The notes under the pieces: generated by a model
Seen by the model: only the letters and a program-made list of their open reading frames with translations
Told to the model about the DNA's origin: nothing
The model's database searches: none
In this document: positions 1,145-17,899 of the stretch, in pieces
Layout of the letters: each line of letters starts with the position of its first letter
How positions within the stretch are numbered: the stretch's first letter is position 1
Program-made: the position numbers and the translations under genes
NCBI GenBank assembly: GCA_943367505.1
Contig: CALRJJ020000001.1
Coordinates: forward strand, 1-40,009
Reading direction: 5' to 3'
DNA length: 40,009 nucleotides
Source of the DNA: Flavobacterium psychrophilum
GTDB lineage: Bacteria > Cyanobacteriota > Vampirovibrionia > Obscuribacterales > Obscuribacteraceae

Positions 1145-1169
1145 GGATTTCAGGTTTACAGGTATGTTT

Positions 1170-1382
1170 TTAGTAGCCCATTTCGCGGCGCACCGCGAGC
1201 ACTTTTTCTTTTGAGTCGATGACGCGAAACTCGCAGTAATCTTCGCCGGGGTCTTCGATGTCGGTCCCGTAGACTTCGACCCGGGCAACTGATGCCAGGT
1301 CGAATTGTGCGAGGTCGAGCTTGAGCTTTTCTTCGCAGAATTTGGCGGCGTTCTCGCCTTTGATGGTCTCGTAGATGTGCAT
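1170..1382 (-). CDS. hypothetical 70-aa acidic protein
   Basis: ORF with GAGGA 7 nt upstream of the ATG. A terminator follows. No motif recognised. Confidence 0.5.
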   Translation of the reverse strand: MHIYETIKGENAAKFCEEKLKLDLAQFDLASVARVEVYGTDIEDPGEDYCEFRVIDSKEKVLAVRREMGY

Positions 1383-1429
1383 TTGCTGTCCTCTTCTGCT
1401 GGATTAGTGTACTAGAACAAGAAGGGAAA

Positions 1430-1449
1430 GCCGCCCCTCGCGGGGCGGC
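1430..1449. terminator. GC hairpin terminator downstream of radC
   Basis: GCCGCCCC-TCGC-GGGGCGGC, flanked by GGGAAA on one side and GAATTTTT on the other. Confidence 0.55.
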
Positions 1450-1465
1450 GAATTTTTCCAGTTAT

Positions 1466-2026
1466 TCAGTCTCGATCCCATAGCTGCGGCTCTGTTTCTC
1501 GCAGGCTATTCATGCTCGCTGAGCTGACAATGCAGTGATCAGCAACCAAAACGCCCATGATTTTGCCCGCTGCAATGAGCTGTTTAGTTACTTCGATGTC
1601 TTCGCGGCTGGGAGCTACTGAGCCGCTCGGGTGGTTGTGCGCCACGATGATGGCGTAAGCGTTTGAGAGAAGCGCCGCCTTAAAAACTTCGCGCGGATGC
1701 ACGAGACTGGCATTAAGAGTGCCTTTCGATACTTCGTGATAGCCAATTACTTGATACTTAGCATCGAGATGGAAAGCAATAAAGTGCTCTTCTGAGTAGT
1801 GCGCAAGCGGCTGAATGAAATGATGAAACGAGATCGGATCTGTAATTGTCGTAGGTTTAATACCCGGCTCTTTAACCAGAACTAGCCGGTATTGCGGCAC
1901 GATGTATTTAAAATGCCTTCTAAGCGGCTTTATTTCCTTCTTCGCTCCAATTTCCCGCCGCGCACTTTTACCAGCAATAGTGGCCTTCTGAACTGCCTTA
2001 CCGTCTGTTTTTTCTGCTCTATTCAT
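1466..2026 (-). CDS. radC: RadC-like JAB/MPN domain protein
   Basis: HNHPSG motif (IIVAHNHPSGSVAPSREDIEVT). The ATG at 2026 has a strong SD (GAAGGAGAAG). The longer ORF back to 2206 runs into GC-rich non-coding sequence. Confidence 0.85.
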   Translation of the reverse strand: MNRAEKTDGKAVQKATIAGKSARREIGAKKEIKPLRRHFKYIVPQYRLVLVKEPGIKPTTITDPISFHHFIQPLAHYSEEHFIAFHLDAKYQVIGYHEVSKGTLNASLVHPREVFKAALLSNAYAIIVAHNHPSGSVAPSREDIEVTKQLIAAGKIMGVLVADHCIVSSASMNSLRETEPQLWDRD

Positions 2027-2362
2027 GTGCTCTTCTCCTTCAGTTCGCGGGGCACGCGCGCACCCCATGCAGCACATGCCTGCTACATGCGAGCCGGGGT
2101 CCCGGTGTCCAGCCTCGCGAAGCGACCCGAAGGGCTTGGGACTGGACGCGGGGGGCTGCATGTGAGGCTCAAGTGCCAGGCATGGAAGGAAGCAAGTGAC
2201 CCGCATTTAGAGCAGAAGCTTTCTGCGGGGCAAAAGATGACTGACAGAATCCGCCGGCAGCGTCGACTAAAAAACTTCCGCCGGCGCCGGCACAATATCA
2301 AACTAAACGGTCCAAGCAGCGACGCTCTTGTTTGTCAGAGTGGCAGCAGCACTCTCCTTTTT
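2027..2362 (-). other. 336-nt GC-rich structured non-coding leader upstream of radC (candidate ssDNA promoter or radC-motif-like element)
   Basis: No credible ORF. Hairpin GGGG-CACGCGCGCA-CCCC at 2049-2066 abuts the SD. Hairpin GCAGAA-GCT-TTCTGC at 2212-2226. Palindrome GCCGGCGCCGGC at 2280-2291. Confidence 0.35.
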
Positions 2363-2569
2363 CTAAACCGATGGTTCGCGAGCTCGCATACTTTCGTCCA
2401 GCTCACGGTACTTAGAAATTGCGTGCACGATCGCTTCTTTTGAACAAGCCACGCATCTTGCATGACAGGCTAGATGCACTTCTCGCTTCAAGTCACAGGT
2501 GTACAGCCCAACAAGATCAGACAGCAAACTGCGCTCAATAGGATTGATGAAATCGTCGTCACCAGGCAT
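2363..2569 (-). CDS. hypothetical 68-aa Cys/His-containing protein
   Basis: ORF with GAGGTG 8 nt upstream of the ATG. No motif recognised. Confidence 0.45.
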   Translation of the reverse strand: MPGDDDFINPIERSLLSDLVGLYTCDLKREVHLACHARCVACSKEAIVHAISKYRELDESMRAREPSV

Positions 2570-2657
2570 AGATATTGCACCTCAAAGCAAATAGCTTTAG
2601 CGTAGCTAAAGGTCGATAGCCTTGTAATGTGCAATTGTACAGTTCTGCACTCAACCC

Positions 2658-2686
2658 TTGACACAGTATATTTGCCGAAGTAGACT
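2658..2686 (+). promoter_or_regulatory. sigma70-like promoter for the 144-aa gene
   Basis: TTGACA at 2658-2663, 17-nt spacer, TAGACT at 2681-2686. AAGGAAAG SD lies ahead of the ATG at 2719. Confidence 0.45.
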
Positions 2687-2718
2687 GTTAGTACTACCAC
2701 AAGGAAAGAATCCGGACT

Positions 2719-3153
2719 ATGGTGATCTCGTTCAAAGACCAAGCACTAGAAGAGCAGCTAAAGTTGAAAAGCAAACATCAGGAAATGTCCCCTTCTCTAG
2801 TAGCAAGGCGTGATTTGCAGCGGTATGCCTGGATTTTGGCGGAACAACAGCCAATTGAGTTAACGGGAGAAGAGTTCTACTCAATTTGCTCAATAATCAA
2901 AGCTATTCAATGGTTTGAAGAGCCTTATCAAATAAAACGTCTACCAGCTTTGGTTGAAGACAGCATAAGAAGTTGCAGGGATGGAAACGACGAATACACA
3001 AAAGTGAGTATGTGGGGAATAGACGTTGATTTAGTTTGCAGTAAATTACAGAAAGCAACGCCATTGCAGCTTCTAGCATTGCTTGACAGAGCTGAGCAAT
3101 ATCCAAAGGAGGCAGTGGACGAAGCTTATCTTGCACGAGTACGCAAGAAATAG
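2719..3153 (+). CDS. hypothetical 144-aa protein
   Basis: ORF with promoter and SD, followed by a strong hairpin. No motif recognised. Confidence 0.55.
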   Translation: MVISFKDQALEEQLKLKSKHQEMSPSLVARRDLQRYAWILAEQQPIELTGEEFYSICSIIKAIQWFEEPYQIKRLPALVEDSIRSCRDGNDEYTKVSMWGIDVDLVCSKLQKATPLQLLALLDRAEQYPKEAVDEAYLARVRKK

Positions 3154-3179
3154 AGCAAATTTATCCTAAAACTAAAAAG

Positions 3180-3199
3180 CCCCTGGCTTGCGCCAGGGG
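3180..3199. terminator. GC hairpin after the 144-aa gene
   Basis: CCCCTGGC-TTGC-GCCAGGGG, preceded by AAAAAG. The T-run on the plus strand is weak. Confidence 0.4.
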
Positions 3200-3262
3200 T
3201 GTACAAATCCATAATACCCAAAATTTCAGACTTTGCAAGCATTTTCAGAGTGACTTAATAAT

Positions 3263-4042
3263 ATGACACCCCATTTATGTCCTTATCCCTTTACTAATGC
3301 CATCACAACGGCGATAGAAACATCAATCTCTCCTGCAAGACTTGCGTTGTATCAGCAGCAGTCGAAGGGTTCCAAGGAGGATGCGCTTGTGCTTTATTGC
3401 TGGAATATCGCTTTGTGCCAATCCCTGTATTGGCCTTTGCAAGCGTTAGAAATTGTCCTGAGAAATGCAATGGCAGAAAAGCTTAAAGTGGCTTATGGAC
3501 CTGATTGGTATGAGGATTTGACACTTTTTAGCACCTCAAAAAGAGGCAAAGCTATCAAAGAAACGGACCAGATCAAAAAAGCTAAAGAAAAGCTAGATGA
3601 TGCTAGTCGACCATATAATCACGACAATATTGTTGCAGCATCTACTCTGGGTTTCTGGCATGGACTTCTCAAATTAGAATACGAGAATCACCTCTGGAAA
3701 CCACATTTTGAAGACCTGTTAGAAGTTAACGACAGGGAAGAAGCGTGGAAAAAGATCAACCAGATGAAAAGGTTGCGCAACAATATTGCACACTACGAGC
3801 CGATCTTTGTATGGGCGAACAAAAGCAAAAGAGAGCTTTATCGTGAATACAAAATTATGGTGAAAATTATTCGTTGGCTTTGCCCAGAAACAGCATTATG
3901 GGTTGAATCTCATTGCAGTAAAAATTTTTTCGATACTTGGAACTGCGCGCCAGCTTCATTCAACGTTTTACCATTGTCTGTAGAGTCAGAAGGAACTGAG
4001 ACAAATTCAGGTGTATGGAAGTTTCCCGTACAACCGATATAG
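3263..4042 (+). CDS. Abi_2 (AbiD/AbiF-like) abortive-infection family protein
   Basis: LYCWNIALCQSLYWPLQALEIVLRNAM near the N-terminus and MKRLRNNIAHYEPIF near the C-terminus match the Abi_2 pattern. Confidence 0.75.
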   Translation: MTPHLCPYPFTNAITTAIETSISPARLALYQQQSKGSKEDALVLYCWNIALCQSLYWPLQALEIVLRNAMAEKLKVAYGPDWYEDLTLFSTSKRGKAIKETDQIKKAKEKLDDASRPYNHDNIVAASTLGFWHGLLKLEYENHLWKPHFEDLLEVNDREEAWKKINQMKRLRNNIAHYEPIFVWANKSKRELYREYKIMVKIIRWLCPETALWVESHCSKNFFDTWNCAPASFNVLPLSVESEGTETNSGVWKFPVQPI

Positions 4043-4840
4043 GTGCACAATGTGACCAAACAAAAGAAAATAGCTACTTGTAAGTTTTGCACAAAGTCGC
4101 GCCAGTTGTGCAAATCGCACATACAGCCACGATGGCTATATAGAGAACGTGGCACAAATTTCAAACTAATCGCGAGCGATGCGATCTTCGAAAAGTCTGC
4201 TCCAATTGGGCCTTACGAGCATCTTCTCTGTTTAGAATGCGAAGGACTGATGGGAAAATATGACGACTATTCAGCAACTTTTTTCAAAGGAAGTCGCTGG
4301 TGGCCCAGGGATGAACGCACTAATTGGCGTGTCATCTTTCAGTACGATTACAGCTTACTAAAACTGTTTATGCTCAGCATGCTTTGGCGTGCAGGAGTAG
4401 CTCAAACAGATTACTTTGCAAACGTTGTGCTCAGCGAACCTGTGTTAGATGACCTTCATTCAATGATAGAAAAACGGGATGCGGGCAACGAACAAGATTA
4501 CAGTGTAATGATTCAAATGCGCGAACCGCGTGGCGGCCTCGAGAAGGTAGGCAGAAGCCCATACATCAAAAAAAGATCCGATAACTTAGAATGGTGCCGA
4601 TTCGACTTGAATGAGTTTTCCTGCGATATCAAAATCAGTAAAGATCAGACTTCCATGGAGCCGAAAATATTATTGACCGACAGACCTCCTATTCTGGTGG
4701 TCACTGGACCGACCTATACTGAGCGTTTGCTTGAGTTTAAAGATCAATCGCTAGCGAGATCAGAAAGAGAGCGTGTGTTTAGGGAAGAGCAAGCGATGAA
4801 GAAATTAGCAAAGAACGACAGCATGCAAACTGAAGAATAA
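4043..4840 (+). CDS. Cys-rich (CxxC...CxxH, CxxC) protein of unknown function, translationally adjacent to the Abi_2 gene
   Basis: The GTG start at 4043 directly follows the Abi stop (an alternative GTG is at 4052). Contains CKFCTKSRQLCKSH and CLEC. Confidence 0.6.
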   Translation: MHNVTKQKKIATCKFCTKSRQLCKSHIQPRWLYRERGTNFKLIASDAIFEKSAPIGPYEHLLCLECEGLMGKYDDYSATFFKGSRWWPRDERTNWRVIFQYDYSLLKLFMLSMLWRAGVAQTDYFANVVLSEPVLDDLHSMIEKRDAGNEQDYSVMIQMREPRGGLEKVGRSPYIKKRSDNLEWCRFDLNEFSCDIKISKDQTSMEPKILLTDRPPILVVTGPTYTERLLEFKDQSLARSERERVFREEQAMKKLAKNDSMQTEE

Positions 4841-4910: not shown

Positions 4911-5300
4911 TTACGCCGCTTTGACTTTCCTGGAAGTCGCAGTTTTCGCTTCGCCTTTTTCTTCAGTCTTGGGCTTCGGACCACAGAGATGAAAACCGGA
5001 GAGCTTCACCACCGGGCGTCTCATCTCGACTTTTACTCCGTTAATTTCCTTGGTGTATTTCGAGATTGAGAGCCTGCCCGAAACTGCGACTTCGCGCCCT
5101 TCAGTTATGGTTTTAAGAACCCGCTCAGCCAGACCATTCCAGGATTCGACATCGATCCACATCGGCTCTGGATTGTCCGATTTAGAGGAGAAGTCAGCGA
5201 CAGCAAGGGAGAACTTAGCCAGAGTGTTGTCCGTATCAGTGAAGGTAGTGGAAGTGGGGGCTTGTCCGACGCGGCCGATGAGAGTGATTTGATTGTTCAT
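4911..5300 (-). CDS. ssb: single-stranded DNA-binding protein (OB fold) without an acidic C-terminal tip
   Basis: MNNQITLIGRVGQAPT...AKFSLAV...WIDVESWNGLAERV...GREVAVSGRL is an SSB OB-fold pattern. GGAGG SD. The C-terminus is basic (SRKVKAA). Confidence 0.85.
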   Translation of the reverse strand: MNNQITLIGRVGQAPTSTTFTDTDNTLAKFSLAVADFSSKSDNPEPMWIDVESWNGLAERVLKTITEGREVAVSGRLSISKYTKEINGVKVEMRRPVVKLSGFHLCGPKPKTEEKGEAKTATSRKVKAA

Positions 5301-5747: not shown

Positions 5748-6542
5748 CTACGGTAGGCAGAAAGCACAAGACTGGCATGGGCGAAGCGTATCTTTCTGCG
5801 ACTTCAAAGAAAGTCCTCCGAGGACGGCGGGACAGAGGGTGAGCATGGCATGCCTGACCGGTTCTGCATGACGCCCGCCCCGGTGATGCGGAAAACTGAC
5901 TATGTCTATGTCAGACTCAAGCGCCTCGAAACTAGGCAATACAGCACTATCCAGCTCTTTGTCCTGCAGTAGTGCTAGCTTCCAGATCGCTGCAGGAGTT
6001 TTGCACAGTGCCATGATGGCGCGGTCATAGTTTTCAGAATCGACTGAAAGCCAGCCCTGGACGTTAGGTAGAGCGGCAAATTCGGTCAGCGCATCGAACA
6101 GATCACCTGGTGCAAACGAGCGAGTGTAAAACCAGAACTTGCAGCCAGTGTATTTCTTGGCAGTTATCGCCCATGCACGCACATAGTCAGCGGAGAAAAA
6201 ATCGCCGACATCATGAATGCGCATGGTCCATGGAATGATAGTCTGCACGCCAGCAATCTTGGCAGTGAGCCAATCTCTTGGACGCGCCTGATCGACCATC
6301 ATCGAGAGATTTTCTGATAGTAGCTTCGGTCCACCTTCAGTAAGCAGATACTCGCAAGTTCTGAAATTGCGGCCCCGTTTGGCTTTCTGCCCTACAGTCT
6401 GATAGCGCACACCATTGCCGTAGCAAAGTCTTTTGCATAAATCGGTAGCACCGACACATGTCTCAGTACGCGGCAAACTAAATGCCCAACCCACTTTGCT
6501 ATTGTTCGTCAACTCCAATCCATAATCCAAACTTACCTTCAT
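5748..6542 (-). CDS. Cys-rich protein of unknown function (Cx6Cx3C near the N-terminus, CxxCxxC at the C-terminus)
   Basis: Internal ATG at 6542 with GGAGAAA SD. Contains TETCVGATDLCKRLCYGNG, MRIHDVGDFFS, FWFYTRS and a C-terminal PCQSCAFC. It loosely recalls phage/plasmid GP88-type proteins, which I could not verify. Confidence 0.6.
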   Translation of the reverse strand: MKVSLDYGLELTNNSKVGWAFSLPRTETCVGATDLCKRLCYGNGVRYQTVGQKAKRGRNFRTCEYLLTEGGPKLLSENLSMMVDQARPRDWLTAKIAGVQTIIPWTMRIHDVGDFFSADYVRAWAITAKKYTGCKFWFYTRSFAPGDLFDALTEFAALPNVQGWLSVDSENYDRAIMALCKTPAAIWKLALLQDKELDSAVLPSFEALESDIDIVSFPHHRGGRHAEPVRHAMLTLCPAVLGGLSLKSQKDTLRPCQSCAFCLP

Positions 6543-6926
6543 GCCATTTCTCCGAGAGCCTCTAATGGCAGCAAGCGCTGCTGTGGCACTCCACCGACTC
6601 GGCTCCGGAGCGGCATTTAAAGAATTAGATAAACAGCAAAACGCCAAACGGTTACCGCAACGGTGGCGCAGAGGCGGGACTCTGGAGATACAGCGCGGCT
6701 CAGTAGCACCAATGAATATCTGTTGGGTATAGATAAAAAAACTAACCGACATAAAAGTGCGAATCGGCTAAAGTTACACTTCAAACCTACTTTCTTTTGC
6801 TCGCCTTACCCGGGAGCAAAGCATATAGAGTGGATTTCCAAAGCGCATATCAACAGGCGGTAGCCCTCACACAAACCATCTGAATATCCCAGCCTGTAAG
6901 CGATTCGGGAAATGTCAGAAAATGGA

Positions 6927-6971
6927 TTGACAAACGATACAATGTCAGGTTATGGTTAAAGCAACCTGACA
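6927..6971 (+). promoter_or_regulatory. promoter and operator of the QueC-like operon
   Basis: TTGACA at 6927-6932 and TATGGT at 6951-6956 with an 18-nt spacer. The perfect 9-bp inverted repeat TGTCAGGTT (6943-6951) / AACCTGACA (6963-6971) overlaps the -10. An extra half-site ATGTCAG lies at 6912-6918. Confidence 0.5.
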
Positions 6972-6987
6972 GCGGAGCGTTTCATAA

Positions 6988-7557
6988 GTGACTGACGGAC
7001 CATTTCGATATACAGAATTGAGCGGGCGCTGGAAAGAATACGGCCGACTTCTGGATGAAGAGATATTTACCCCTTTAGATAGGCTAAATCAGGCGCAGAA
7101 GGCTTTGATTGAAGACCTGGCTCCTGGGGAGTTTCGTGCCATGTTGCGTGAAGTTCAGAGCAAACTCGATCACCTTCAGGGTCACTTATTTATAGACATG
7201 TCTAAACAGGCGCTCGAAAAAATTATTGATAAGCATCCTGCCTGCCAGCAATCCGAAAACTTCCGAAGAGAAATGCTGGCGGAAATGTCTATAGGTAACG
7301 TATCAACCGCTTTCGATACTGCTTGGCAAAATACGCTCCAAACTGGAATTGATCAGGCGAATGAGCATTTACGTGTTCATTGCATCATTGCTGACGAAAA
7401 GCGCGAGAACAAAGAGCACCAGTCCAACTTGCGAATGAATCATGACGAAGTTTTTTCAAGCATAAATACCGACTTTCTCCGTCAGGTGATTTTCGACCGA
7501 CCAGCTTCTCCTGCGTTATCAACTGTTTCCCGCTCTGAGGATGGACCGCCTTTATGA
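6988..7557 (+). CDS. hypothetical helical 189-aa protein, first gene of the QueC-like operon
   Basis: GTG start. Its stop overlaps the next ATG (ATGA at 7554-7557). No motif recognised. Confidence 0.6.
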   Translation: MTDGPFRYTELSGRWKEYGRLLDEEIFTPLDRLNQAQKALIEDLAPGEFRAMLREVQSKLDHLQGHLFIDMSKQALEKIIDKHPACQQSENFRREMLAEMSIGNVSTAFDTAWQNTLQTGIDQANEHLRVHCIIADEKRENKEHQSNLRMNHDEVFSSINTDFLRQVIFDRPASPALSTVSRSEDGPPL

Positions 7558-8894
7558 CTGAAATAAACGAATGGCATGTACAAATTTTAGAGAGTGAACA
7601 AAAGCCTATTGCAGGCTGCTCCGCATACGCACGTCTTGGCACAGAAATCAAAATTGACCCTCAGGTCTTAAATGCCATAAAAGACGGTGCATTTCAGCCC
7701 ATTCACCACGATTTGCTGATACTTTGTGCTGCAATTGAATATGCAGACAGACGTTGGCCTCATCACGATTTTTGGTCGCGCAAATTGCGTCTTACTGTTC
7801 CTGTTTCAGAATTAGAGCTATGGCAAGAACCACAAATTGCCGACCTACTGAAACATATCCTGAGATATTTAACTTGCGACTCCTGGCATTTTGATTTCGT
7901 GCAAGCACGCGAAATACCACAATCAACTGGACAGAAGAAAATCATTTTTGACGACGAAAAAACTCTAGCTATCGCTTATAGCGATGGATTAGACTCACGC
8001 GCTGTCTGGGCTTTAAGCGGAACATACAACGAATCGATTTGCATCCGTGTGGCAAAAAAATATAATAAAGCAAAGAAAGGGGATGGCTTATTCACTCAAA
8101 TTCCATTTGCTGTCACAGTTCCTGGTGGACGGGAGAGCAGTTTTCGGTCGAGATCATTTCAGTTTTCAGTGATTACTGCAATAGCGGCGCATATTGCTGG
8201 TTTCACTCGCATTGTTGTTCCTGAGAGCGGACAGGGTGTGCTTAGTCCAGCGATTTTGCCGCTGCATAGAAACTACGCCGACTACAGAAACTATCCGTTG
8301 TTCTTTCGCAAGATGGAGCGTTTTATAAATTTGGTGCTTAAGCATAACGTTCGATACGATCAGTTCCGGCTCTGGTCGACTAAGGGTGAAACAATGGAAG
8401 CGTTTCTCAAACTTCCTGGTAAATCTCCCGAATACCTGCTTGAGACGCGCTCCTGTTGGCAGATTCGCAATGTCGTGAATTACAAAAAACGGCGCCGACA
8501 ATGTGGGCTCTGTGCTGCATGTCTTCTGAGAAGGTTCAGCTTACACAAGGCAAACGTCGTCGAACCGGAAGGGATGTATGTTGTCGAAGATTTGACTCTA
8601 TCAACCGCCAAGGGCGCGATGTTTGCCGTCCAAGAGAAATATGTACCGAGCATGATCGGTTATGGAATTGCTGCGGTCAGGCACTTTCAACAGTTTGCAA
8701 ATTTGGCTTCGAAACCTGATAGTGCTTTGCGAGTACCAATTCAAGAACTATCAGCTGCCACAGCCACTGCTCAAGACGTAGTTAGCGTCAACCTTAGGAC
8801 GCTTTTGAGTAACCATGCAAGCGAGTGGAACACATTTATTTCTGACCAAGGCAAAAATAGTTTTCTTTTGAACTGGATTGATGGAGGCACTTAA
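7554..8894 (+). CDS. QueC-like PP-loop ATP pyrophosphatase with an N-terminal extension
   Basis: PP-loop variant AIAYSDGLDSRAV. C-terminal Cys cluster SCWQ...RRRQCGLCAACLLRR like the QueC zinc site. About 130 aa of extra N-terminal sequence. Confidence 0.8.
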   Translation: MTEINEWHVQILESEQKPIAGCSAYARLGTEIKIDPQVLNAIKDGAFQPIHHDLLILCAAIEYADRRWPHHDFWSRKLRLTVPVSELELWQEPQIADLLKHILRYLTCDSWHFDFVQAREIPQSTGQKKIIFDDEKTLAIAYSDGLDSRAVWALSGTYNESICIRVAKKYNKAKKGDGLFTQIPFAVTVPGGRESSFRSRSFQFSVITAIAAHIAGFTRIVVPESGQGVLSPAILPLHRNYADYRNYPLFFRKMERFINLVLKHNVRYDQFRLWSTKGETMEAFLKLPGKSPEYLLETRSCWQIRNVVNYKKRRRQCGLCAACLLRRFSLHKANVVEPEGMYVVEDLTLSTAKGAMFAVQEKYVPSMIGYGIAAVRHFQQFANLASKPDSALRVPIQELSAATATAQDVVSVNLRTLLSNHASEWNTFISDQGKNSFLLNWIDGGT

Positions 8895-10084
8895 TGGTTG
8901 ATTTGAATGAGTTAAGTTCACAAGAAATCGGGAGGAGACTTAAAGTAGCGCGTGAGACTGCTGGTTTCAGGCAAGAGCAAGCAGCCCAAAAACTAGAAGT
9001 TTCACGACCAACTCTTGTATCCATCGAACAAGGTGCACGCAGAATCAAACCCAAAGAGTTGCAAATTCTTGCCAACTTTTATGGAATCTCTGTAAACCGT
9101 TTACTGCGGCGAGAAGCCGTTCATACAGATTTGTTGCCACGATTTAGAAGGCTAAGTGATACTGAAGACGGTGACATAAAAGTTGCAGTGAACTTACTAA
9201 ATGACTTATCTCGCGCTGACGTGGAACTCGAAAATGTGCTGGGAATAGCCAGCCGCAGAGAATATCCACCAGAGCACGGCATAAATGAGGGTGATGTATA
9301 TGAGCTTGCCGCGAAAAATGCAAACTTGATGAGGGAGCATCTGGGGCTCGGATCTGGGCCAATATCGAACATTTTTTCACTGATTGAATTTGATCTGGGA
9401 ATACGTTTGTACCAGCGTTGCCTGCCGTCAAAGATTGACGGTCTGTTTTCTTACGATGATATGGTCGGTGCCTGCATTTTGATCAACGCAAACCATCGTT
9501 TAACACGTCGGGTTCAAACAGCCAGTCATGAACTCGGACACTTCGACGGCACTCGGCAAAATCCAGAAGTCCTTGAGAGCGATGAAAAATTCAACTCGCG
9601 CGACGAACGTTACGCTCATGCCTTTGGCAGAGCTTTTCTTACTCCATCCGATTCATTTTCTGAGTCCTTCTATCAAGTTAAGAGGCTGTGTGGAACTGAC
9701 AAGTTGAGCAGAAAGCTCGTTATATTGCTCGCCGATAAGTTTCATATCTCCCGAGAGGCGTGTGTTAGAAGGCTCGAAGAGTTAGGCTTGGCGCGTAAAG
9801 GGTCGTGGGACTGGTTCGAGACAAAAGGGAAGATCACACACAGTGATGCAGTGGAAGTTTTAGGCGCAGCAGCGCATAGAGACGACCCGATAAAAGAGGA
9901 AGCTGCGCGCCCCCTTTCTCAAAGAATGAGTGTATTAGCGCACTCAGCATGGAAGCGCGATCTCTTGTCAGAGGGACAGTTAGCGGAGCTATTTAAAATC
10001 AGTCGAGTTGAGTTACGCAGAGTCATCGATGAAATCGAGGTCTTAGAAGAGGAAAATTATGAATTTTTCCAACTCGTTGACTGA
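8894..10084 (+). CDS. Xre-family HTH fused to an ImmA/IrrE (COG2856) zinc metallopeptidase
   Basis: HTH: IGRRLKVARETAGFRQEQAAQKLEVSRPTLVSIEQG. HEXXH: TASHELGHF. The start overlaps the upstream stop (TAATG). Confidence 0.85.
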   Translation: MVDLNELSSQEIGRRLKVARETAGFRQEQAAQKLEVSRPTLVSIEQGARRIKPKELQILANFYGISVNRLLRREAVHTDLLPRFRRLSDTEDGDIKVAVNLLNDLSRADVELENVLGIASRREYPPEHGINEGDVYELAAKNANLMREHLGLGSGPISNIFSLIEFDLGIRLYQRCLPSKIDGLFSYDDMVGACILINANHRLTRRVQTASHELGHFDGTRQNPEVLESDEKFNSRDERYAHAFGRAFLTPSDSFSESFYQVKRLCGTDKLSRKLVILLADKFHISREACVRRLEELGLARKGSWDWFETKGKITHSDAVEVLGAAAHRDDPIKEEAARPLSQRMSVLAHSAWKRDLLSEGQLAELFKISRVELRRVIDEIEVLEEENYEFFQLVD

Positions 10085-10697
10085 TCCGCAACTGCCACTG
10101 GTAGTGGATACGAGCGTACTTATCAGCATACAAAGTTGTGGTCAGGGAGAGGACATTTTTTCTTCCATACCAAATCCCATTATCGTTCCGAAGGTGGTTG
10201 CCGACGAATTTCAACGAGGAACCGAGGATAAATCATTTTTGCCGAAGCTCATTCTTTCGCAGCATCTACTGCTGGAAGAGGTTACAGAAACCGAAGACGA
10301 GACGTACTTCAATCTGTTGATGTCTCTAGATGATGGCGAATCCGCCACTATAGCGATTGCATTTCATAGAAAATTTCTACCGATCATTGATGAACGAAAA
10401 GGCAGAGCAAAAGCTCTCACATTAGACGCACAGCTTGCACCAGGCTGGTCTCTCGACTTACTTCAACATCAGGCGGTTGTGGAGATATTAGGCGAATCAA
10501 GAACAGCTGATCTGATTTTTTTGGCTCTACGGGACAGCCATATGAGAATCCCAGAAGAGAGAGCAGACGAAATAATCAGCCTCATTGGAGAGGGGCGGGC
10601 TCGTGAGTGTACCTGTCTTCCTAGCTATAATCGGCGTTTTCGACTTGCTGCGTTTATCGAAAAAAAAGAGAGCCCCGGGTTACCGGGGCTCATATAA
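10059..10697 (+). CDS. PIN-like nuclease domain protein
   Basis: LPLVVDTSVLISI, DDGESATIAIA and IIDERKGR give a PIN-type acidic residue pattern. GAGGAA SD. It overlaps the ImmA-like gene by 26 nt. Confidence 0.6.
   Translation: MNFSNSLTDPQLPLVVDTSVLISIQSCGQGEDIFSSIPNPIIVPKVVADEFQRGTEDKSFLPKLILSQHLLLEEVTETEDETYFNLLMSLDDGESATIAIAFHRKFLPIIDERKGRAKALTLDAQLAPGWSLDLLQHQAVVEILGESRTADLIFLALRDSHMRIPEERADEIISLIGEGRARECTCLPSYNRRFRLAAFIEKKESPGLPGLI
10671..10690 (-). terminator. rho-independent terminator of the TPWG/SHGG gene, embedded in the 3' end of the PIN gene
   Basis: AGCCCCGG-GTTA-CCGGGGCT, followed on the minus strand by CTCTTTTTTTT. Confidence 0.55.
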
Positions 10698-10698
10698 A

Positions 10699-10944
10699 TT
10701 AAAGATTGATCTTGAAAAATTCGCGCACTATTTGGGCATCTTCGTCTTCCTCGTAGAAACCGTTGAGACCCTGACTGCACCAAGTAGATTGTTTGATTTC
10801 ATTAGGGATTTCTTTATTGCGCTCAGGTGAAAGGTAATAGCCACCGTGGCTGGCGGTGGAAATAAACCAAACGCCTTCAGCGTGCTCTTCTACAGTCTGG
10901 ATTTTTCCCCATGGTGTCTTGAGTTCATTTGGAAGTGTTTGCAT
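10699..10944 (-). CDS. small conjugative-element-type protein (TPWG...SHGG...EED motifs), function unknown
   Basis: The internal ATG at 10944 has an AAGGAG SD. 81 aa: MQTLPNELKTPWGKIQ...FISTASHGGYYL...FYEEDED. Confidence 0.65.
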   Translation of the reverse strand: MQTLPNELKTPWGKIQTVEEHAEGVWFISTASHGGYYLSPERNKEIPNEIKQSTWCSQGLNGFYEEDEDAQIVREFFKINL

Positions 10945-11379
10945 ATCTGCCTCCTTGGGGCATCTGGGACGCGCACCCAGAACCGCATAAGCGCCTGGCA
11001 AAAAATTCGCGCAGCGCCTCGAAGAGGTTGATTTTGCAGCCAGAAGCGGTGTGGTTTAAGGCTAGCTACCAGAAGCCACGTAAAGGAGGTAAGAAATCAA
11101 ACCACCTTTGAACTCAAAACAGACAGAGCAAAAGCCTAGGAGTGAAGAGCTTTTTCGAAGGCGCAAGGTAAACTTCCACCAAAAGCAACAACGGCAAAAA
11201 CGCTATAGATAGCGCCCTTAGAAATCCAAAGAAATCAAACATACAATTGAAAAGTAGTCAGGGTCTGGGTTTGTACATCAGGGACGCAGTGCATAAAGTG
11301 CACGACTACCAAAAGGTCAATCCAACAATTATTTGAGCTTCGTATAGCAATCCAATTAAACCCAGGCGAAGAGCTGCTC
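10945..11379 (-). other. 435-nt GC-rich structured non-coding leader upstream of the TPWG/SHGG gene
   Basis: Hairpin CTGGG-ACGCGCA-CCCAG at 10964-10980 abuts the SD and shares CGCGCACCC with the radC leader. AACCACC at 11100-11106. Confidence 0.35.
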
Positions 11380-13179
11380 TCAACTAGAGTCACTCGGCGG
11401 TAACTTGCCTCGTACTCTTCTTTCTGGACCATGCTGCCGAGAACTAAATTCCCTTCGAAGCTGCTGGATATACGGCAAAAGCAAGACAGCGTCTTCTTCA
11501 TAGGGGGCCATACTAAGCAAACTCGACAAAGCAACGAGCCGATATTTCAGATCAACAACAGATAGGGAAAAAGGACTATCTGCTGTAAGTTGAGCAACCC
11601 TTGATCGCCACTCCTGTTCGGACGCGCTAACAGACTGAGTTTTGGCCAATTCATTAGTGTGAATCTCTTTAAGACGTTGTAGAGAAAGATCCGAAACAAC
11701 TCGACGTGCAGCTACAAGACCAGAAGGAATTTCTTCAACAAGGACAGGAGAACATGGCAAGCCTTCAGAAATCGGATTTGAATCCTCCACAGCGTTATAT
11801 TCGTCAGTACAGGATGCAAAGAAGCCATCTGCTAGCTCCTCATATTCCTGCCTCCAAATATCGGCGTGCTTGTACAGGGTAGCTCTGCCACATCCGGCAG
11901 CCTTCTGAAGTTCAAGAGTCGAAAATCGTTCTTTGCGAATCCGAAGTGCCGCGAGGGCATCTTCAATTCTGCGGCGAGCGCTAGCTTTGCGCTTGGCGTT
12001 TTCTCTAATCCAGGAAATCGGTGCTGTAGCCTTATAAGTTTCGACTTCACCGTCCCGTCTATGAGGGGGCACCCAGATGGCCATGCGCGAAATTTGGGCG
12101 GTGGCATCAGCCCGCCCACGAGCAATATCTTTACTGAATCCATTGTGGTTCGTGGCAAGAAAGTCCTGAATGAGAAGCTCGCGGCTGGCGCTGTGGGCGT
12201 AGCCGAGTGCCGGAAGTCCGCGGCTGGGATCGCCATAGAAAAAATAATGACCTAAACAGAAGGCGGCCTCAGCGCGCTGACCATTACTGGTTAATCCTTG
12301 TAAATGAAACAGGCGGCCACGTTGCCAGACTTCCGTATCAATGTTGAGTGGCAGGTGCCCGAAGACTGAAGCGACAAATAGGCTTGCTTCACCCGATGAG
12401 ACTGGTTTGCCAGCGCGAATCGGTACGAGGTTGTCGCGCTTTTCCAATTGTGGCGAGGACGTTTGGATTGCCCCCAATTCGGCGATACGAGCCTTTAAGG
12501 CAAGAAAATCGGCATAAGAATTGGCATCGCTGTCGACGCAGTCGATGAAAAACTCGAGCGCTTTGGTGGCAGACATCTCTTCACGGTAGTGATCAATATC
12601 GAGCGTCCGTTTATCAAGCCAGGCGAAACCTGCTTGAAGAGGGAGCCGTAAACCCATACCAAGTGATGCATAGCCTGGGTGTGGGAAAACTTCGAGAGTG
12701 CCTTTTGCCACTTCAAAATTGGATAACTTGAGCAGTTTCACTAACTGCTGATAAAGATTTTTGCTGCCGATTGGCTCATCAAAGAATATATAGAGGTGCC
12801 AGCCGCCGCTAAAGCTTGAGCGATATAGCGAAGAGCGCTTGAGCCCCGCCAGGGCCAGCGTCTCAAGCAATCGGTCGAGTTCTTCTTTGCAGTGATACTT
12901 GCTGTCGGTGTCGATATCGAGCACCGCATATAGGGTCTTGTTGCCAGAGCGACTACCTATATAGTATTTGTCGTTTTGAAGCGAGATCGCCTTCAAGATG
13001 CTGCTATCGTCTAGCTTCCATGTCTCGTTTGCAGATGACCAGTTGCCACCGGCTATTGGTTTGTAGATGTAACCGTAACGGTGAAACAGCGATAGAAACT
13101 GAGACACGCAAAACTCCCATCCTTCAGGGAAGAATTTCTTGCGCGCAAACCTAGTCGGCGCGCTCGACGAAGAGCGCAC
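11380..13179 (-). CDS. AEP-type primase-polymerase / plasmid replication initiator with a C-terminal HTH
   Basis: LYAVLDIDTD (DxD) and SFSGGWHLYIFFDEP (GGxH) are AEP motifs I and II. The C-terminal AAGCGRATLYKHADIWRQ is HTH-like. Confidence 0.7.
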   Translation of the reverse strand: MRSSSSAPTRFARKKFFPEGWEFCVSQFLSLFHRYGYIYKPIAGGNWSSANETWKLDDSSILKAISLQNDKYYIGSRSGNKTLYAVLDIDTDSKYHCKEELDRLLETLALAGLKRSSLYRSSFSGGWHLYIFFDEPIGSKNLYQQLVKLLKLSNFEVAKGTLEVFPHPGYASLGMGLRLPLQAGFAWLDKRTLDIDHYREEMSATKALEFFIDCVDSDANSYADFLALKARIAELGAIQTSSPQLEKRDNLVPIRAGKPVSSGEASLFVASVFGHLPLNIDTEVWQRGRLFHLQGLTSNGQRAEAAFCLGHYFFYGDPSRGLPALGYAHSASRELLIQDFLATNHNGFSKDIARGRADATAQISRMAIWVPPHRRDGEVETYKATAPISWIRENAKRKASARRRIEDALAALRIRKERFSTLELQKAAGCGRATLYKHADIWRQEYEELADGFFASCTDEYNAVEDSNPISEGLPCSPVLVEEIPSGLVAARRVVSDLSLQRLKEIHTNELAKTQSVSASEQEWRSRVAQLTADSPFSLSVVDLKYRLVALSSLLSMAPYEEDAVLLLPYIQQLRREFSSRQHGPERRVRGKLPPSDSS

Positions 13180-14192: not shown

Positions 14193-15050
14193 GTGAGAAC
14201 ACTAACCGTAAAAGAAACCGCAAAGATACTCGGCGTGAGCGTTCGCACTATCCAAAATCGCCTCAACGCCCAAGACTTAAATGGTAAACGGGTCACTAAC
14301 CAATATGGGACGTCTGAATGGCGTGTCTGGCCAAACAAAGAAATCTTGGACAAACTGAAGGATTTTCCGCCCGATGCATTTGCCCTCGGCGGCGACCGAC
14401 CAAGTGAAGAATTTCAAGGCGGCGACAGCAGTGCCGTACTTGATGCCGAAGCAGTAGATATTGACAACGATTACTTCGAGGATGAACAAACTCCCATAAA
14501 GTCCATCATCCGGGAAATATCTCAGCAGTTTGCGGAGCAGTTGAGTCGCGAAAAGCAGCTTAATTTCCAACTTCAGCGTGAGCTACAAGAGAAAGATCTC
14601 GAACTGAAGCGACTTCCCGACTTTCAAAAGCAAGCCGAAGATCGCCGGCTGGAAGCAGAAGCCAAAGAACTCGAAGCTATCGCCCTGGCGAAACAAGTCG
14701 AAGCCCTCAAGGCCCTGACCGAAGAGAAGGCTGCCGATCTGGCACGACTCAATGAGCTTGAGACCAAAACTTTGCCCACCATACAGCGCCAGCTTGACCA
14801 AGAACGCTCTCAAAAAGAGCAAGGCTTAGCAGAAGCCGCCGCTAAGGTCAGCGCCCTGGAAAACGCCAAACAAGAGGCAGAAATTGCCAAATCGAAGCTT
14901 GAAGAGTCTCTTCAAAACGAGATTGCTCGCCTCCGGGACGAGAAGGAAGACCAGGCACGTGCTATAGAAACTAAATTTGATTCTTTGAACCAAAAATTGG
15001 AAGCCTTACAAAAACCGTGGTGGAAGAAGTTTCTAGGTTCTCTGGATTAA
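14193..15050 (+). CDS. KfrA-like DNA-binding protein (N-terminal HTH plus a long coiled coil)
   Basis: GTG start. LTVKETAKILGVSVRTIQNRL is an HTH. It is followed by about 180 aa of E/K/Q/L-rich heptad-like sequence. Confidence 0.65.
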   Translation: MRTLTVKETAKILGVSVRTIQNRLNAQDLNGKRVTNQYGTSEWRVWPNKEILDKLKDFPPDAFALGGDRPSEEFQGGDSSAVLDAEAVDIDNDYFEDEQTPIKSIIREISQQFAEQLSREKQLNFQLQRELQEKDLELKRLPDFQKQAEDRRLEAEAKELEAIALAKQVEALKALTEEKAADLARLNELETKTLPTIQRQLDQERSQKEQGLAEAAAKVSALENAKQEAEIAKSKLEESLQNEIARLRDEKEDQARAIETKFDSLNQKLEALQKPWWKKFLGSLD

Positions 15051-15061
15051 GAAGGCGAAGT

Positions 15062-17899
15062 ATGAGCACGGCGACCGTCACACACACCGAGCATCAGCGT
15101 AAATATTTTGCGTCGCTTCTTAGCTTGCGAGGGAATGCGGAAGAAGAGATTTCGCAAACTTTGAAACGCGTGCGGGTTGATATGAACCCTCACCAGGTAG
15201 ATGCTGCTATTTTTGCCATCCAATCTCCGGTGTCATCTGGAGCGATTTTGGCGGATGAAGTTGGACTCGGGAAGACAATTGAAGCCAGTCTAGTGATGGC
15301 CCAAAAATGGGCCGAGAGAAAACGACGGATACTTTTGATTGTTCCAGCGTCACTTCGCAAACAATGGAGTCAAGAACTTTCAGAGAAATTTGGACTTCCC
15401 AGCATAATTATGGAAGCGAAAATATTCAATGCTGCGGTAAAAGCCAAACAGATAAACCCCTTTGAACAAGAAGGCTCAATCGTTATTTGCTCTTATCAAT
15501 TCGGAGCAGCCAAAGCAGACATGGTGGCACGAGTACCATGGGACCTGGTCGTTTTTGATGAAGCTCATAAACTGCGGAATGTCTACAAGAAGGACGGCTC
15601 GGCAATCGCAAAAAAATTGAAAGCTGCTACTGCTGCGCCTAAAAAGTTATTGCTTACTGCAACTCCACTCCAAAACACACTAATGGAGCTATTCGGTCTT
15701 GTTTCAGTTCTGGACGAACATTTTTTTGGAAGTGAATTAGCTTTCAAAACAGCTTACGTTTCTGGGCGAAGTGGCGTCAATTTGCCGATCTTAAAGCATC
15801 GTATGAAAGCAATCTGCCAGCGAACATTGAGGCAAGAAGCGCAAGAAGCAGGTCTGGTGAATTTCACAAGACGAAACCTTGTAACAGAAAATTTCTCTCC
15901 ATCTGATGAAGAGCAGCAGCTTTACGAGAAAGTATCTGCATATTTACAGCGTCCGGAAATTAAGGCGATGAAGCCAAACGGGCGCCATCTAGTGACCTTG
16001 GCTGTTAGAAAAATTTTGGCGTCTTCTTCGTTTGCGATAGCTGATACGCTCAAGAAAATGATGGACCGCCTTAAAACGAAGCACGCTGTCAATCTGGCAG
16101 CATTGAACGATCTCGAAGATCTGGACGAAACAGCTGAAGAACTTGAAATTGATGTCGATGACGAAGCTGATGCCCAGGAAGTAGAGGCTCTGGGAAGTGA
16201 GATCGAAGAACTTAGAGGCATGCAAGAACTGGCTTTAGGCATTAGAGAAAATGCTAAAGGAGAATGCCTTGTAAATGCTTTGGGTAAATACCTCGATAGC
16301 ATTGAAGAAAAAGGTGGTCAGCGCAAAGCTGTTGTCTTCACTGAATCCGTCCGTACGCAAACGTATCTCAAAACCTTGCTAAGCGCCAATGGTTATGATG
16401 GCAAAATAGTCGTTATGAATGGCTCCAATAGTGATCCTTCAAGTCAAGAAATATATAGACAGTGGTTAGCGAAGCACAAAGGAACGGATGCCATTTCCGG
16501 TTCTAAAAGTGCTGATATGAAGGCAGCTATTGTTGATAAGTTCAAAAATGATGCAGTCGTTCTTGTATGCACAGAATCAGGCGCAGAGGGTATAAACCTT
16601 CAGTTTTGCTCACTCTTGGTTAACTACGACCTACCGTGGAACCCACAAAGAGTAGAACAGCGTATCGGCCGTTGCCATAGATATGGGCAAAAGCTTGATG
16701 TTGCAATTCTAAATTTCATAAATCTTGGGAATAGAGCTGAACAGCGCGTCTTTCAACTCTTGAATCAAAAATTTCAGCTCTTCGATGGTGTGTTTGGTTG
16801 CAGCGATCAAGTTTTGAGTGCCATTGAATCTGGTGTCGACATCGAGCAAAAAATATTGGCTGTCATTCAAAAATGTCGATTTCCTCATGAGATAGATGCT
16901 GAGTTTGACAAGTTGCAGCAGGAATTAAAAGAAAAAATTGAGCAGCGAGATGAGGAAGCTCGTCTAGCTCTTCTCCAGACTATGGACGAAAGTGTTGTAG
17001 ACAGACTTAAGCTGCGTAAAGAGCGCATTGAAGACCGTCTGGGCAAATATGATCGCTATCTTCTTCTCCTCACCAAGTCAGAACTACCAGAAGCGCGTTT
17101 TGTAAATCCCAAGCGTTTTGAATACGATGGACAGACCTACAGCTTGGAATGGCCAGCGGCGGATGATAATGGTTGGCATTTTTACAGAATAGCTGAAGGC
17201 ACATTAGCTGCTAATCTAGTAGAAAAAGCAAAATCCAGAGAAGTTCAATTAGCCACAATTACCTTCGATTACAATGCTTACGAAGGTGGCGGTCAACTTA
17301 GCGATCTGCTACCGCTACGTGGCAATAGTGGCTATTTGACGGCAAACAAACTGACGATCACAAATGCAGTGTCAGTCAAGGAATATGTCATTTTAAGCGG
17401 GGTGACTGAGACCGGTGAAGTCTTGCATGAGGAACAACTCCACCATTTACTTTTAATTCCTGGGTCAGTTAAGAACAAGCTTCCTTCAAATCCACTGGCC
17501 TCGGTCTTAGCAAATATCTTAGACTCTCGGCAAAAAGAGCTTTATGTCAACGCAGAGGGCGAAAATTTAGAGTTTCTCAATGATGAAACAGAAAAGTTAG
17601 ATCGCTGGGAAGAAGAAAGTACAGCGGCTATTGATGTGGTTATCAAAGATCTGCGAAAACAAGCTAACGAGTGTGACAAACAGTCGCGGAATCCGGCGCT
17701 TACAATGAAAGAGAAACTAGCGCTTAAGAGGCAATCTAGCCATCACAAAGGCGAAGCGACTAAACAGAAAAAGAACTATTTTGAGCAGCAAGAGAAGATA
17801 GCAAGCGATCGGGTGGAAATACTTGATCGTCTTGAAAAACAATTACAGATAGAACAAGAAGTCGAGCCTATGTTCTCGATTCGGTGGGAATTGGTATGA
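15062..17899 (+). CDS. SNF2-family helicase/ATPase
   Basis: Helicase motifs LADEVGLGKTIEA, VVFDEAHKLRN, LLLTATPLQN, CTESGAEGINLQ and DLPWNPQRVEQRIGRCHRYGQ. The ATG at 15062 is preferred over the GTG at 15017. Confidence 0.9.
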   Translation: MSTATVTHTEHQRKYFASLLSLRGNAEEEISQTLKRVRVDMNPHQVDAAIFAIQSPVSSGAILADEVGLGKTIEASLVMAQKWAERKRRILLIVPASLRKQWSQELSEKFGLPSIIMEAKIFNAAVKAKQINPFEQEGSIVICSYQFGAAKADMVARVPWDLVVFDEAHKLRNVYKKDGSAIAKKLKAATAAPKKLLLTATPLQNTLMELFGLVSVLDEHFFGSELAFKTAYVSGRSGVNLPILKHRMKAICQRTLRQEAQEAGLVNFTRRNLVTENFSPSDEEQQLYEKVSAYLQRPEIKAMKPNGRHLVTLAVRKILASSSFAIADTLKKMMDRLKTKHAVNLAALNDLEDLDETAEELEIDVDDEADAQEVEALGSEIEELRGMQELALGIRENAKGECLVNALGKYLDSIEEKGGQRKAVVFTESVRTQTYLKTLLSANGYDGKIVVMNGSNSDPSSQEIYRQWLAKHKGTDAISGSKSADMKAAIVDKFKNDAVVLVCTESGAEGINLQFCSLLVNYDLPWNPQRVEQRIGRCHRYGQKLDVAILNFINLGNRAEQRVFQLLNQKFQLFDGVFGCSDQVLSAIESGVDIEQKILAVIQKCRFPHEIDAEFDKLQQELKEKIEQRDEEARLALLQTMDESVVDRLKLRKERIEDRLGKYDRYLLLLTKSELPEARFVNPKRFEYDGQTYSLEWPAADDNGWHFYRIAEGTLAANLVEKAKSREVQLATITFDYNAYEGGGQLSDLLPLRGNSGYLTANKLTITNAVSVKEYVILSGVTETGEVLHEEQLHHLLLIPGSVKNKLPSNPLASVLANILDSRQKELYVNAEGENLEFLNDETEKLDRWEEESTAAIDVVIKDLRKQANECDKQSRNPALTMKEKLALKRQSSHHKGEATKQKKNYFEQQEKIASDRVEILDRLEKQLQIEQEVEPMFSIRWELV

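Follow-up and report, generated by a model that had tools for sequence, protein, structure and literature searches.

A mobile four-gene cassette combining a QatC-like enzyme, a repressor-protease and a PIN-like nuclease, most likely a new variant among anti-phage systems of the QueC family

Protein-modifying enzymes of the QueC family were discovered only in 2025-2026, in the type IV cyclic-oligonucleotide-based anti-phage signalling system (CBASS) and in QatABCD. In the paradigm that they define, the enzyme binds a partner protein, draws its Met-processed N-terminal tail into the catalytic pocket and couples an ATP-activated carboxylate to its alpha-amine; in CBASS this carboxylate is 7-carboxy-7-deazaguanine. 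The partner in type IV CBASS is a cGAS/DncV-like nucleotidyltransferase (CD-NTase) with the motif M(G/S)G(G/S)GG, so that Ser is tolerated at position 2. In the Qat system, the MGTS tail of QatB occupies the active site of QatC, its G2 is essential, and an NDG-modified GTSKAY peptide has been detected (PMC13279940, PMC13376578, PMC13639016). QatC has a T-x-T motif in place of the Tyr/Asp that binds 7-deazaguanine in QueC and Cap9 (PMC13279940). The reaction of QatC and the way in which modified QatB stops phage are still open questions. Here we describe a cassette of four genes, ORF1 to ORF4 (open reading frames 1 to 4), found at positions 6913-10697 of a 40,009-nt stretch of contig CALRJJ020000001.1 (assembly GCA_943367505.1), which is called the window below. 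The cassette joins an enzyme of this family to a fused repressor-protease and a predicted nuclease.

Described systems also provide relatives for these two last genes. ImmA-type antitoxins pair with PIN-like toxins, and ImmR/ImmA is a regulator of mobile elements (PMC10440598). PDC-S70 is a single-gene PIN nuclease candidate that is as yet unvalidated (PMC12988326).

The four genes were first noticed by a model that read the letters of the window and ran no database searches (the sequence-only reading). It described four co-directional, coupled ORFs behind one promoter, and its coordinates and junctions are reproduced here (Table 1). All the features that it listed are present. It named a lack of co-occurrence beyond this locus as a ground for refutation, and on that count the survey described next does not refute it. 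We scanned GTDB, taking one genome per species, with an ORF2 profile; the scan gave 122 relatives, and 80 loci were retrieved and examined. Homologues of ORF3 and ORF4 follow ORF2 directly and on the same strand in 80 of the 80 loci. An ORF1 homologue, detected by profile search, lies directly upstream of ORF2 in 77 of them, and the other three are cut by the contig end. The same genes are thus always together, and their order is kept even at 30-32% ORF2 identity on annotated Agrobacterium and Roseomonas plasmids. In PLSDB, 26 plasmids were matched by ORF2 and 26 by ORF4, the two sets being identical except for one record each; no free-standing ORF3-ORF4 pair was found there at the sensitivity reached. 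When the pairwise distances of the four proteins are compared, their matrices correlate at r = 0.95-0.98 for the full set and at 0.88-0.97 in the closer clade. We reject the idea that two independent two-gene modules lie side by side by chance, in view of the co-occurrence in all loci, the near-identical plasmid sets and the correlated distances. The four genes are inherited as a single unit.

Alphaproteobacteria, Burkholderiales and Melainabacteria are among the groups in which homologues of the cassette occur. Conservation is highest in ORF3 (median identity 64%), followed by ORF2 (50%), ORF4 (45%) and the fast-evolving ORF1 (27%). No fifth conserved gene was found: no flank family is present in more than 14 of the 80 loci. 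The closest public copy of the cassette, on contig CALROJ020000031.1 of a metagenome-assembled genome (locus L001, positions 1-3221), shares 95.6% nucleotide identity with positions 7529-10749 of the window, and the identity stops at 10749. Downstream of this copy are a GT4-conflict glycosyltransferase gene (1.2e-116) and a second large ORF, whereas the window has a DUF7007 gene and a primase-like gene there. The differing downstream context is evidence of recent relocation. Megablast with the operon found no match in PLSDB or among complete E. coli genomes; the window does not stem from a well-sampled organism. Because the cassette is conserved as a unit while its flanks vary, and because a relocated copy with 95.6% identity exists, we regard it as self-contained and mobile.

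Judged by its sequence and its predicted structure, ORF2 is a full-length QatC-like PP-loop enzyme in which the ATP- and zinc-binding residues are intact. It matches the PADLOC QatC model (1.6e-27), and a profile of the ORF2 family (28 members) has significant PDB matches to QatC chains only (9vlk_A, 8.7e-22; 9zee_B, 2.5e-19). In Foldseek, its AlphaFold 2 (AF2) model (predicted local distance difference test score, pLDDT, 83.5; predicted template modelling score, pTM, 0.86) matches QatC of the QatB-QatC complex (9y01_B) over the full length (E = 1.2e-14, template modelling scores 0.66/0.68), and Cap9 (9nto_B) weakly (E = 1). The PP-loop variant and the C-terminal Cys cluster pointed out in the sequence-only reading both hold: neither S143, G145, D147 and S148 of the loop nor the cysteines C301, C317, C320 and C323 vary across the aligned family. 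The extra N-terminal part of about 130 aa, also pointed out there, is real and is homologous to the N-terminal extension of QatC. In our own reading of the alignment, ORF2 carries several of the QatC-specific motifs listed in PMC13329287 (DxWxxxF, RxRxxxF, ExG, P(x)4TK and CGxCxxCxxRR). It is nevertheless a separate sister clade and not QatC proper, because it scores 107 bits against the NCBIfam QatC equivalog, the cut-off of which is 280. The canonical 7-deazaguanine-binding Y-x-D motif looks retained: Y241-A-D243-Y244 aligns with YPDC of QueC 2pg3 (YPDCRD), in an alignment that is weak (E = 0.046).

Could ORF2 simply be a metabolic QueC with unrelated neighbours? RefSeq labels most of its PLSDB homologues “7-cyano-7-deazaguanine synthase” (e.g., NC_019555.1 19028-20407), and there is a weak Pfam QueC match (PF06508) of 19.3 bits. 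This match is, however, below the gathering score of 22, and the QueC equivalog TIGR00364 scores 12.9 bits against a cut-off of 150.3. ORF2 is twice as long as QueC and has N- and C-terminal extensions of the QatC type. No queD, queE or queF was found among the neighbours examined, and the same three non-metabolic genes always adjoin; the statement of the sequence-only reading that queD, queE, queF and tgt are missing is correct for the window ORFs scanned. E. coli QatC, for its part, fails to complement a queC mutant (PMC13329287). We consider the metabolic explanation hardly credible. ORF2 stands outside queuosine biosynthesis clusters, and these data indicate that the RefSeq name is wrong for its family.

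ORF1 has no significant match in Pfam, NCBIfam or PADLOC. It was rejected as QatB itself, since neither a PADLOC or NCBIfam model nor any PDB sequence at E <= 10 matched. Its AF2 model (pLDDT 84, pTM 0.75) consists of a disordered segment 1-12, nine helices in 13-169 and a disordered C-terminal tail. With this model the best Foldseek match had E = 2.1, and QatB (9y01 chain A) was unmatched, though 9y01 and 9y02 were both in the library. In its position and its design, with a helical body and an N-terminal tail that is flexible and bears a motif, ORF1 is an analogue of QatB but not a demonstrable homologue, and we propose it as the substrate and partner of ORF2. The Qat-like modifier pair suggested by the sequence-only reading is supported as far as sequence evidence reaches, with one qualification: profile and structure searches found ORF2 to be a full-length QatC relative, but they gave no QatB match for ORF1. 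The same reading called ORF1 helical, with no motif that it recognised. It is indeed predicted to be all-helical, but it has motifs at both ends. Across alignments of 41 and 54 members only M1, D3, G4, P5 and G186 are invariant, and W15 is so fully or almost fully. Ser or Thr occupies position 2, which gives an N-terminal motif M-[ST]-D-G-P, and the protein ends in D-[DE]-G-[PV]-x-L. In 78 loci the first codon (ATG in 73 and GTG in 5) is also where the N-terminal motif begins, which fixes the start. A Ser or Thr at position 2 permits the removal of Met1.

ORF3 was described in the sequence-only reading as an Xre helix-turn-helix (HTH) domain fused to an HELGH metallopeptidase, and both domains are recovered by Pfam (Table 1). 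Behind them lies a further conserved stretch of about 100 aa, which forms the C-terminal part. In PADLOC, ORF3 matches 16 models of RmrA (best 3e-18), as well as capP (4.6e-10) and capH (3.6e-5). Its HTH is closest to ImmR of the element ICEBs1 (7t8i, 3.5e-6) and to DdrOC (6rnz). From these similarities we propose ORF3 to be an autorepressor and protease switch, or an antitoxin.

The PIN-like character of ORF4, likewise claimed from the letters, agrees with its matches to four PDC-S70 models in PADLOC (4.1e-13 to 8e-8; a fifth is weak, E = 0.008) and with its invariant acidic residues, while the Pfam PIN match is weak and below cut-off. The acidic tetrad D17, E50, D92/E94 and D111 comes in the order expected for PIN. 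A conserved C-terminal domain follows, with the motifs RMR[IV]P and C184-x-SLP. ORF4 is probably a PIN-like nuclease, and we propose it as the effector or toxin of the cassette.

Combining these elements, we lean, at a little better than an even chance, towards the following reading: the region 6913-10697 is a mobile four-gene cassette that most likely acts against phages or other mobile elements and belongs to the QueC-family protein-modification type. In the proposed mechanism, the HTH of ORF3 would bind the TGTCAG/CTGACA sites at the promoter and hold expression of the operon low. ORF2 would bind ORF1 and draw the N-terminal tail into its active site, in the manner of QatC with QatB and of Cap9 with CdnD. 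After removal of Met1 the alpha-amine of Ser/Thr2 would be exposed; ORF2 would adenylate a carboxylate substrate and couple it to this amine. The substrate would probably be 7-carboxy-7-deazaguanine, since the canonical Y-x-D motif appears to be retained. The module of ORF3 and ORF4 would then read the modification state of ORF1. A signal would activate the ORF3 peptidase, which would cleave itself or ORF1, and this cleavage would derepress the operon and free the PIN nuclease ORF4 to degrade nucleic acid and stop the infection or the cell. The invariant tail motif, the Ser/Thr2 that allows Met removal and the intact active site of ORF2 suggest, by analogy, that ORF1 and ORF2 fit the paradigm. 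The function as a whole, i.e., N-terminal modification of ORF1 controlling a protease-regulated PIN effector, we infer.

Several points weigh against this reading. The substitution G2D abolishes function in both QatB and CdnD, and ORF1 has Ser/Thr2 followed by an invariant Asp; because of this, the acceptor chemistry of ORF1 may differ from that of QatB and CdnD. The QatC reaction has still not been reconstituted in vitro (PMC13279940). The Y-x-D assignment comes from the weak QueC alignment, and the alignment with QatC (S-T-R-T-T) shifts the register by three residues. ORF4 scores 16 bits against the Pfam PIN cut-off of 23.6, with weak matches in 14 of 24 family members, and the PIN assignment is only probable because the ORF4 family profile found nothing among PDB sequences at E <= 1. 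ORF1 and ORF2 are tied to ORF3 and ORF4 by co-inheritance only. The tally of defence genes beside the cassette (see below) is a raw one, with no genome-wide background set beside it. A scan of IMG/VR with the ORF2 profile found no relative, which says nothing either way about a role in defence.

The two ends of ORF1 carry similar acidic-Gly-Pro motifs, both on disordered tails. These twin motifs may be recognition or processing sites. If they are sites of processing or ligation, two versions of events can be imagined, which together we consider quite improbable. According to the first one, a phage-triggered cut by ORF3 before Gly4 would expose an N-terminal glycine, the canonical acceptor of the QueC family, and thereby license the modification of ORF1 by ORF2. 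The second version draws on the synthesis of lasso peptides, in which a leader protease works with a PP-loop Asn-synthetase-like cyclase. By analogy, ORF2 would adenylate a carboxylate in the C-terminal tail of ORF1 and join it to the N-terminal amine; the whole of ORF1 would be cyclised, and control over the PIN nuclease would lie with this cyclised product. If true, this would be a case of protease-gated protein-nucleobase conjugation or of whole-protein cyclisation, respectively.

The window matches a tripartite operator, TGTCAG-N24-TGTCAG-N17-CTGACA, at 18 of 18 positions, and its inverted repeat extends to TGTCAGGTT/AACCTGACA. With up to 3 mismatches, the operator is present in 62 of 73 distinct upstream regions, while only 1 of 365 shuffles reached even <=4 mismatches. 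The exact 24/17 spacing is kept in 46 of the 62 matching loci, the intervening sequence being variable. The last half-site lies about 12 nt from the start codon across loci and 16 nt from it in the window. Also conserved across homologous loci are a TTGAC(A) -35 element beside the middle TGTCAG and, in the aligned upstream regions, GGAG(G) at the place equivalent to that of the ORF1 ribosome-binding site. In a divergent clade the distal site forms a complete palindrome, CTGACAwTGTCAG. The tripartite arrangement is characteristic of operators to which dimeric HTH proteins bind, and the HTH of ORF3 is the obvious candidate for the putative binder.

This operator bears on the role of ORF3. The sequence-only reading called the PIN effector protease-gated, which is one of two readings of ORF3; a CapH/CapP-like transcriptional switch may equally apply. 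In its full form, the alternative says that ORF3 is only such a switch (a fused CapH/CapP- or ImmR/ImmA-like one), which derepresses the operon after stress such as DNA damage and does not neutralise ORF4. The immune machine would then consist of ORF1, ORF2 and ORF4, with the PIN protein replacing the TatD nuclease QatD. The overlap of the conserved operator with the promoter speaks in favour, as do the matches of ORF3 to the capP and capH models and the closeness of its HTH to ImmR and DdrO, which are repressors cleaved by ImmA and IrrE. In PLSDB, relatives of ORF4 occur only inside the operon and never as free ORF3-ORF4 pairs, and QatBC forms complexes with the nuclease QatD (PMC13639016). 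On the other hand, the 26-nt overlap of ORF3 and ORF4 and their antitoxin-then-toxin order are typical of toxin-antitoxin (TA) pairs, and the best ORF3 matches are to antitoxin models, those of RmrA. ORF3 is moreover the most conserved of the four proteins, and together with its C-terminal region this is more than a simple switch needs. We hold the switch-only explanation to be unlikely, though a serious competitor of the main reading; ORF3 may be a RosmerTA-like antitoxin or only a CapH/CapP-like switch, and ORF4 may be restrained by it or by another of the proteins.

Table 1. Features of the four-gene cassette, in window coordinates
Feature	Position (nt)	Strand	Position in protein (aa)	Description
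Distal operator half-site	6913-6918	+		TGTCAG; part of tripartite TGTCAG-N24-TGTCAG-N17-CTGACA
Promoter, sigma-70-type	6927-6956	+		TTGACA (6927-6932), 18 nt, TATGGT (6951-6956); 10/12 consensus positions
Inverted repeat	6943-6971	+		TGTCAG (6943-6948)-N17-CTGACA (6966-6971); spans the -10 region
Ribosome-binding site of ORF1	6974-6977	+		GGAG, 10 nt upstream of GTG
ORF1	6988-7557	+		189 aa; GTG start abutting an in-frame TAA
ORF1/ORF2 junction	7554-7557			ATGA
ORF2	7554-8894	+		446 aa; QatC-like PP-loop ATP pyrophosphatase
ORF2 N-terminal extension			about 1-135	
ORF2 QueC core			about 136-335	
ORF2 PP-loop	7980-7997	+	S143-S148	variant AYS-D-GLDS
ORF2 substrate loop	8274-8291	+	Y241-A-D243-Y244-R245-N246	
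ORF2 Zn cysteines			C301, C317, C320, C323	
ORF2 C-terminal extension			336-446	helical
ORF2/ORF3 junction	8892-8896			TAATG
ORF3	8894-10084	+		396 aa; Xre HTH and ImmA/IrrE M78 metallopeptidase
ORF3 Xre HTH	8921-9106	+	10-71	Pfam HTH_31, 2.7e-12
ORF3 ImmA/IrrE M78 peptidase	9395-9775	+	168-294	Pfam Peptidase_M78, 1e-12
ORF3 HELGH	9527-9541	+	212-216	H212, E213, H216 invariant
ORF3/ORF4 overlap	10059-10084			26 nt
ORF4	10059-10697	+		212 aa; PIN-like nuclease, predicted
ORF4 PIN-like domain	10098-10433	+	14-125	D17, E50, D92, E94, D111 invariant
T-run	10662-10669	-		follows the hairpin on the minus strand
G+C-rich hairpin, 9 bp	10670-10691	.		GAGCCCCGG-GTTA-CCGGGGCTC; within the non-conserved 3' end of ORF4

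The hairpin near the end of ORF4 marks the right end of the cassette region. With its T-run it reads as a minus-strand intrinsic terminator of the convergent DUF7007 gene, so that the two genes would share their ends. This gene (10699-11001, minus strand, 2.4e-21) flanks the cassette on the right, and a GP88-family gene (5748-6752, minus strand, PF17338, 6.2e-26) flanks it on the left. Further to the right lies a minus-strand gene for a 599-aa protein (11380-13179) with a weak match, below threshold, to archaeo-eukaryotic primase (TOTE AEP). None of the GP88, DUF7007 and primase-like genes is conserved beside the cassette elsewhere.

The window is a conjugative element, with genes for a coupling protein (T4CP, 28397-30418), a relaxase (30419-31999), a resolvase, a single-stranded DNA-binding protein (SSB) and RadC. 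Its conjugative backbone lies at 26495-31999, 22778-23368, 1466-2206 and 4911-5300 on the minus strand and at 36403-36879 on the plus strand; the members are the coupling protein of the type IV secretion system, the MobA/VirD2-like relaxase, a DnaJ-domain protein, the resolvase, RadC and SSB, and also an immunity-type protein of the SUKH-1 (SMI1/KNR4) family. Several large window ORFs (34377-36107, 37588-38694, 24017-24778 and 25557-26498) had no family match. The cargo of the element is rich in defence genes, which lie at two loci besides the cassette. At 15017-22288, on the plus strand, are genes for a DrmD-like SNF2 helicase (PADLOC DrmD, 6e-193) and, behind it, for two type III enzymes, a methyltransferase (7.9e-213) and a restriction enzyme (2.4e-279), which by these matches constitute a predicted type III restriction-modification (RM) system with an attached DISARM-type helicase; ahead of them, at 14193-15050 on the same strand, is a gene for a protein with a mad1-like N-terminal HTH. 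An Abi_2/HEPN gene (3263-4042, plus strand; PADLOC PD-T4-5 1.7e-14, AbiD 8.6e-10) is abutted by an ORF of 265 aa with no family match (4043-4840, plus strand), and 3263-4840 is possibly a two-gene abortive-infection module.

At the other loci, the immediate neighbours of the cassette include AbiEi/AbiEii, SoFic, Gabija, type IIG RM, mad3, a GT4-conflict glycosyltransferase, Shedu, Lit, integrases and ParB. Neighbours that vary in this way are typical of mobile elements and defence islands. One may then ask whether the cassette is an addiction or regulatory module and not an immune system: a three- or four-component TA system that stabilises plasmids and integrative and conjugative elements (ICEs) or controls their transfer, with ORF1 and ORF2 tuning the stability of the antitoxin. 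Of the 26 host plasmids in PLSDB, 20 are conjugative or mobilizable, the window itself is a conjugative element, integrases and ParB are present in the flanks, and ImmR/ImmA regulates mobile elements (PMC10440598). But the flanks differ from locus to locus, so the cassette is not bound to the regulation of one element, and known defence genes often adjoin it. Both parent families, Qat and RosmerTA, are experimentally anti-phage, and TA and defence functions are not mutually exclusive. The addiction module strikes us as a doubtful explanation, and we still favour an immune function.

Next to type IV CBASS and QatABCD, the cassette provides a third architecture, independent of the other two, on one and the same enzyme scaffold. 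It is small and strictly conserved, and its output parts can be recognised as a PIN nuclease, a repressor-protease and an operator of defined sequence; it also keeps an apparent 7-deazaguanine-binding Y-x-D motif, which QatC has lost. For these reasons it could be an easier system for reconstituting the chemistry and the coupling of N-terminal modification to an effector. Current annotation conceals it: homologues that carry an annotation mostly go under “7-cyano-7-deazaguanine synthase”, “XRE family regulator” or “hypothetical protein”. PADLOC models could call only PDC-S70 here, as the matches to QatC and RmrA lack the partner genes of their systems.

How does the cassette compare with the known systems? 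The sequence-only reading did not recognise the combination as a named one, and we agree: no name for it was found in the literature searched, nor among the PADLOC or NCBIfam models. The literature on QueC with ImmA/PIN, COG2856 or metallopeptidase gave no description of the four-gene operon. Word searches of the three papers on QatBC structures and of the QueC-superfamily network paper turned up no peptidase, Xre or ImmA partner. PF06114 and PF13560 were not present in the accessible portion of the network-paper supplement, and the rows of the QatC cluster found there list KAP_NTPase and TatD_DNase.

The nearest system is QatABCD (PDB 9y01, 9y02, 9zee, 9vlk), of which QatBC alone suffices for some defence. 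ORF2 has the three-part architecture of QatC (N-terminal extension, QueC core and helical C-terminal extension), and the gene just before it specifies, as in the case of QatB, a helical protein whose N-terminal tail is flexible and bears a motif. Unlike QatABCD, the four genes include neither QatA (a KAP NTPase) nor QatD (TatD), and neither of these ranks among the 25 commonest PADLOC or Pfam families in the flanks. The ORF1 motif M-[ST]-D-G-P lies on a tail of ~12 aa, whereas the MGTS of QatB lies on one of 30-90 aa. ORF2 has Y-A-D-Y-R-N where QatC has its invariant T-x-T. The cassette also adds the repressor-protease and the PIN nuclease.

The likeness to type IV CBASS concerns the chemistry. 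There, a QueC-family enzyme (Cap9) acts on the N-terminal amine of an adjacently encoded partner (CdnD), as we propose for ORF2 and ORF1; ORF2, like Cap9, apparently keeps the Tyr/Asp nucleobase-recognition motif, and Ser is allowed at acceptor position 2. The cassette differs in that it lacks a CD-NTase, a TGT-like Cap10 and a cyclic-nucleotide effector, and no CD-NTase, Cap9 or Cap10 domain was found in the operon or the window ORFs scanned. Cap9 is in addition a minimal protein of about 185 aa with no extensions.

ORF3 and ORF4 recall RosmerTA, which has an HTH and Zn-peptidase protein (RmrA) as antitoxin and RmrT as toxin, and also the modules of Xre-COG2856 proteins and PIN-like toxins; in the cassette, too, the antitoxin-like gene comes first, and it overlaps the PIN-like gene downstream. 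RosmerTA consists of two genes, however, whereas the present pair always comes with ORF1 and ORF2, and no RmrT model of PADLOC matches ORF4. With CapH/CapP, ImmR/ImmA and DdrO/IrrE the cassette shares an Xre HTH repressor, an M78 protease and a conserved operator at its own promoter; it differs in that both activities are fused in ORF3, with an extra C-terminal region, and in that no CBASS, ICE excision genes or DNA-repair regulon are attached. PDC-S70 is a mostly archaeal single gene, while ORF4 invariably stands fourth in the operon and carries a further conserved domain at its C-terminus. The cassette thus does not qualify as QatABCD, type IV CBASS or RosmerTA. It resembles QatBC and Cap9-CdnD at its front end and RosmerTA, or ImmR-ImmA plus PIN, at its back, and it is most likely a new, not yet named variant of the QueC-family anti-phage systems.

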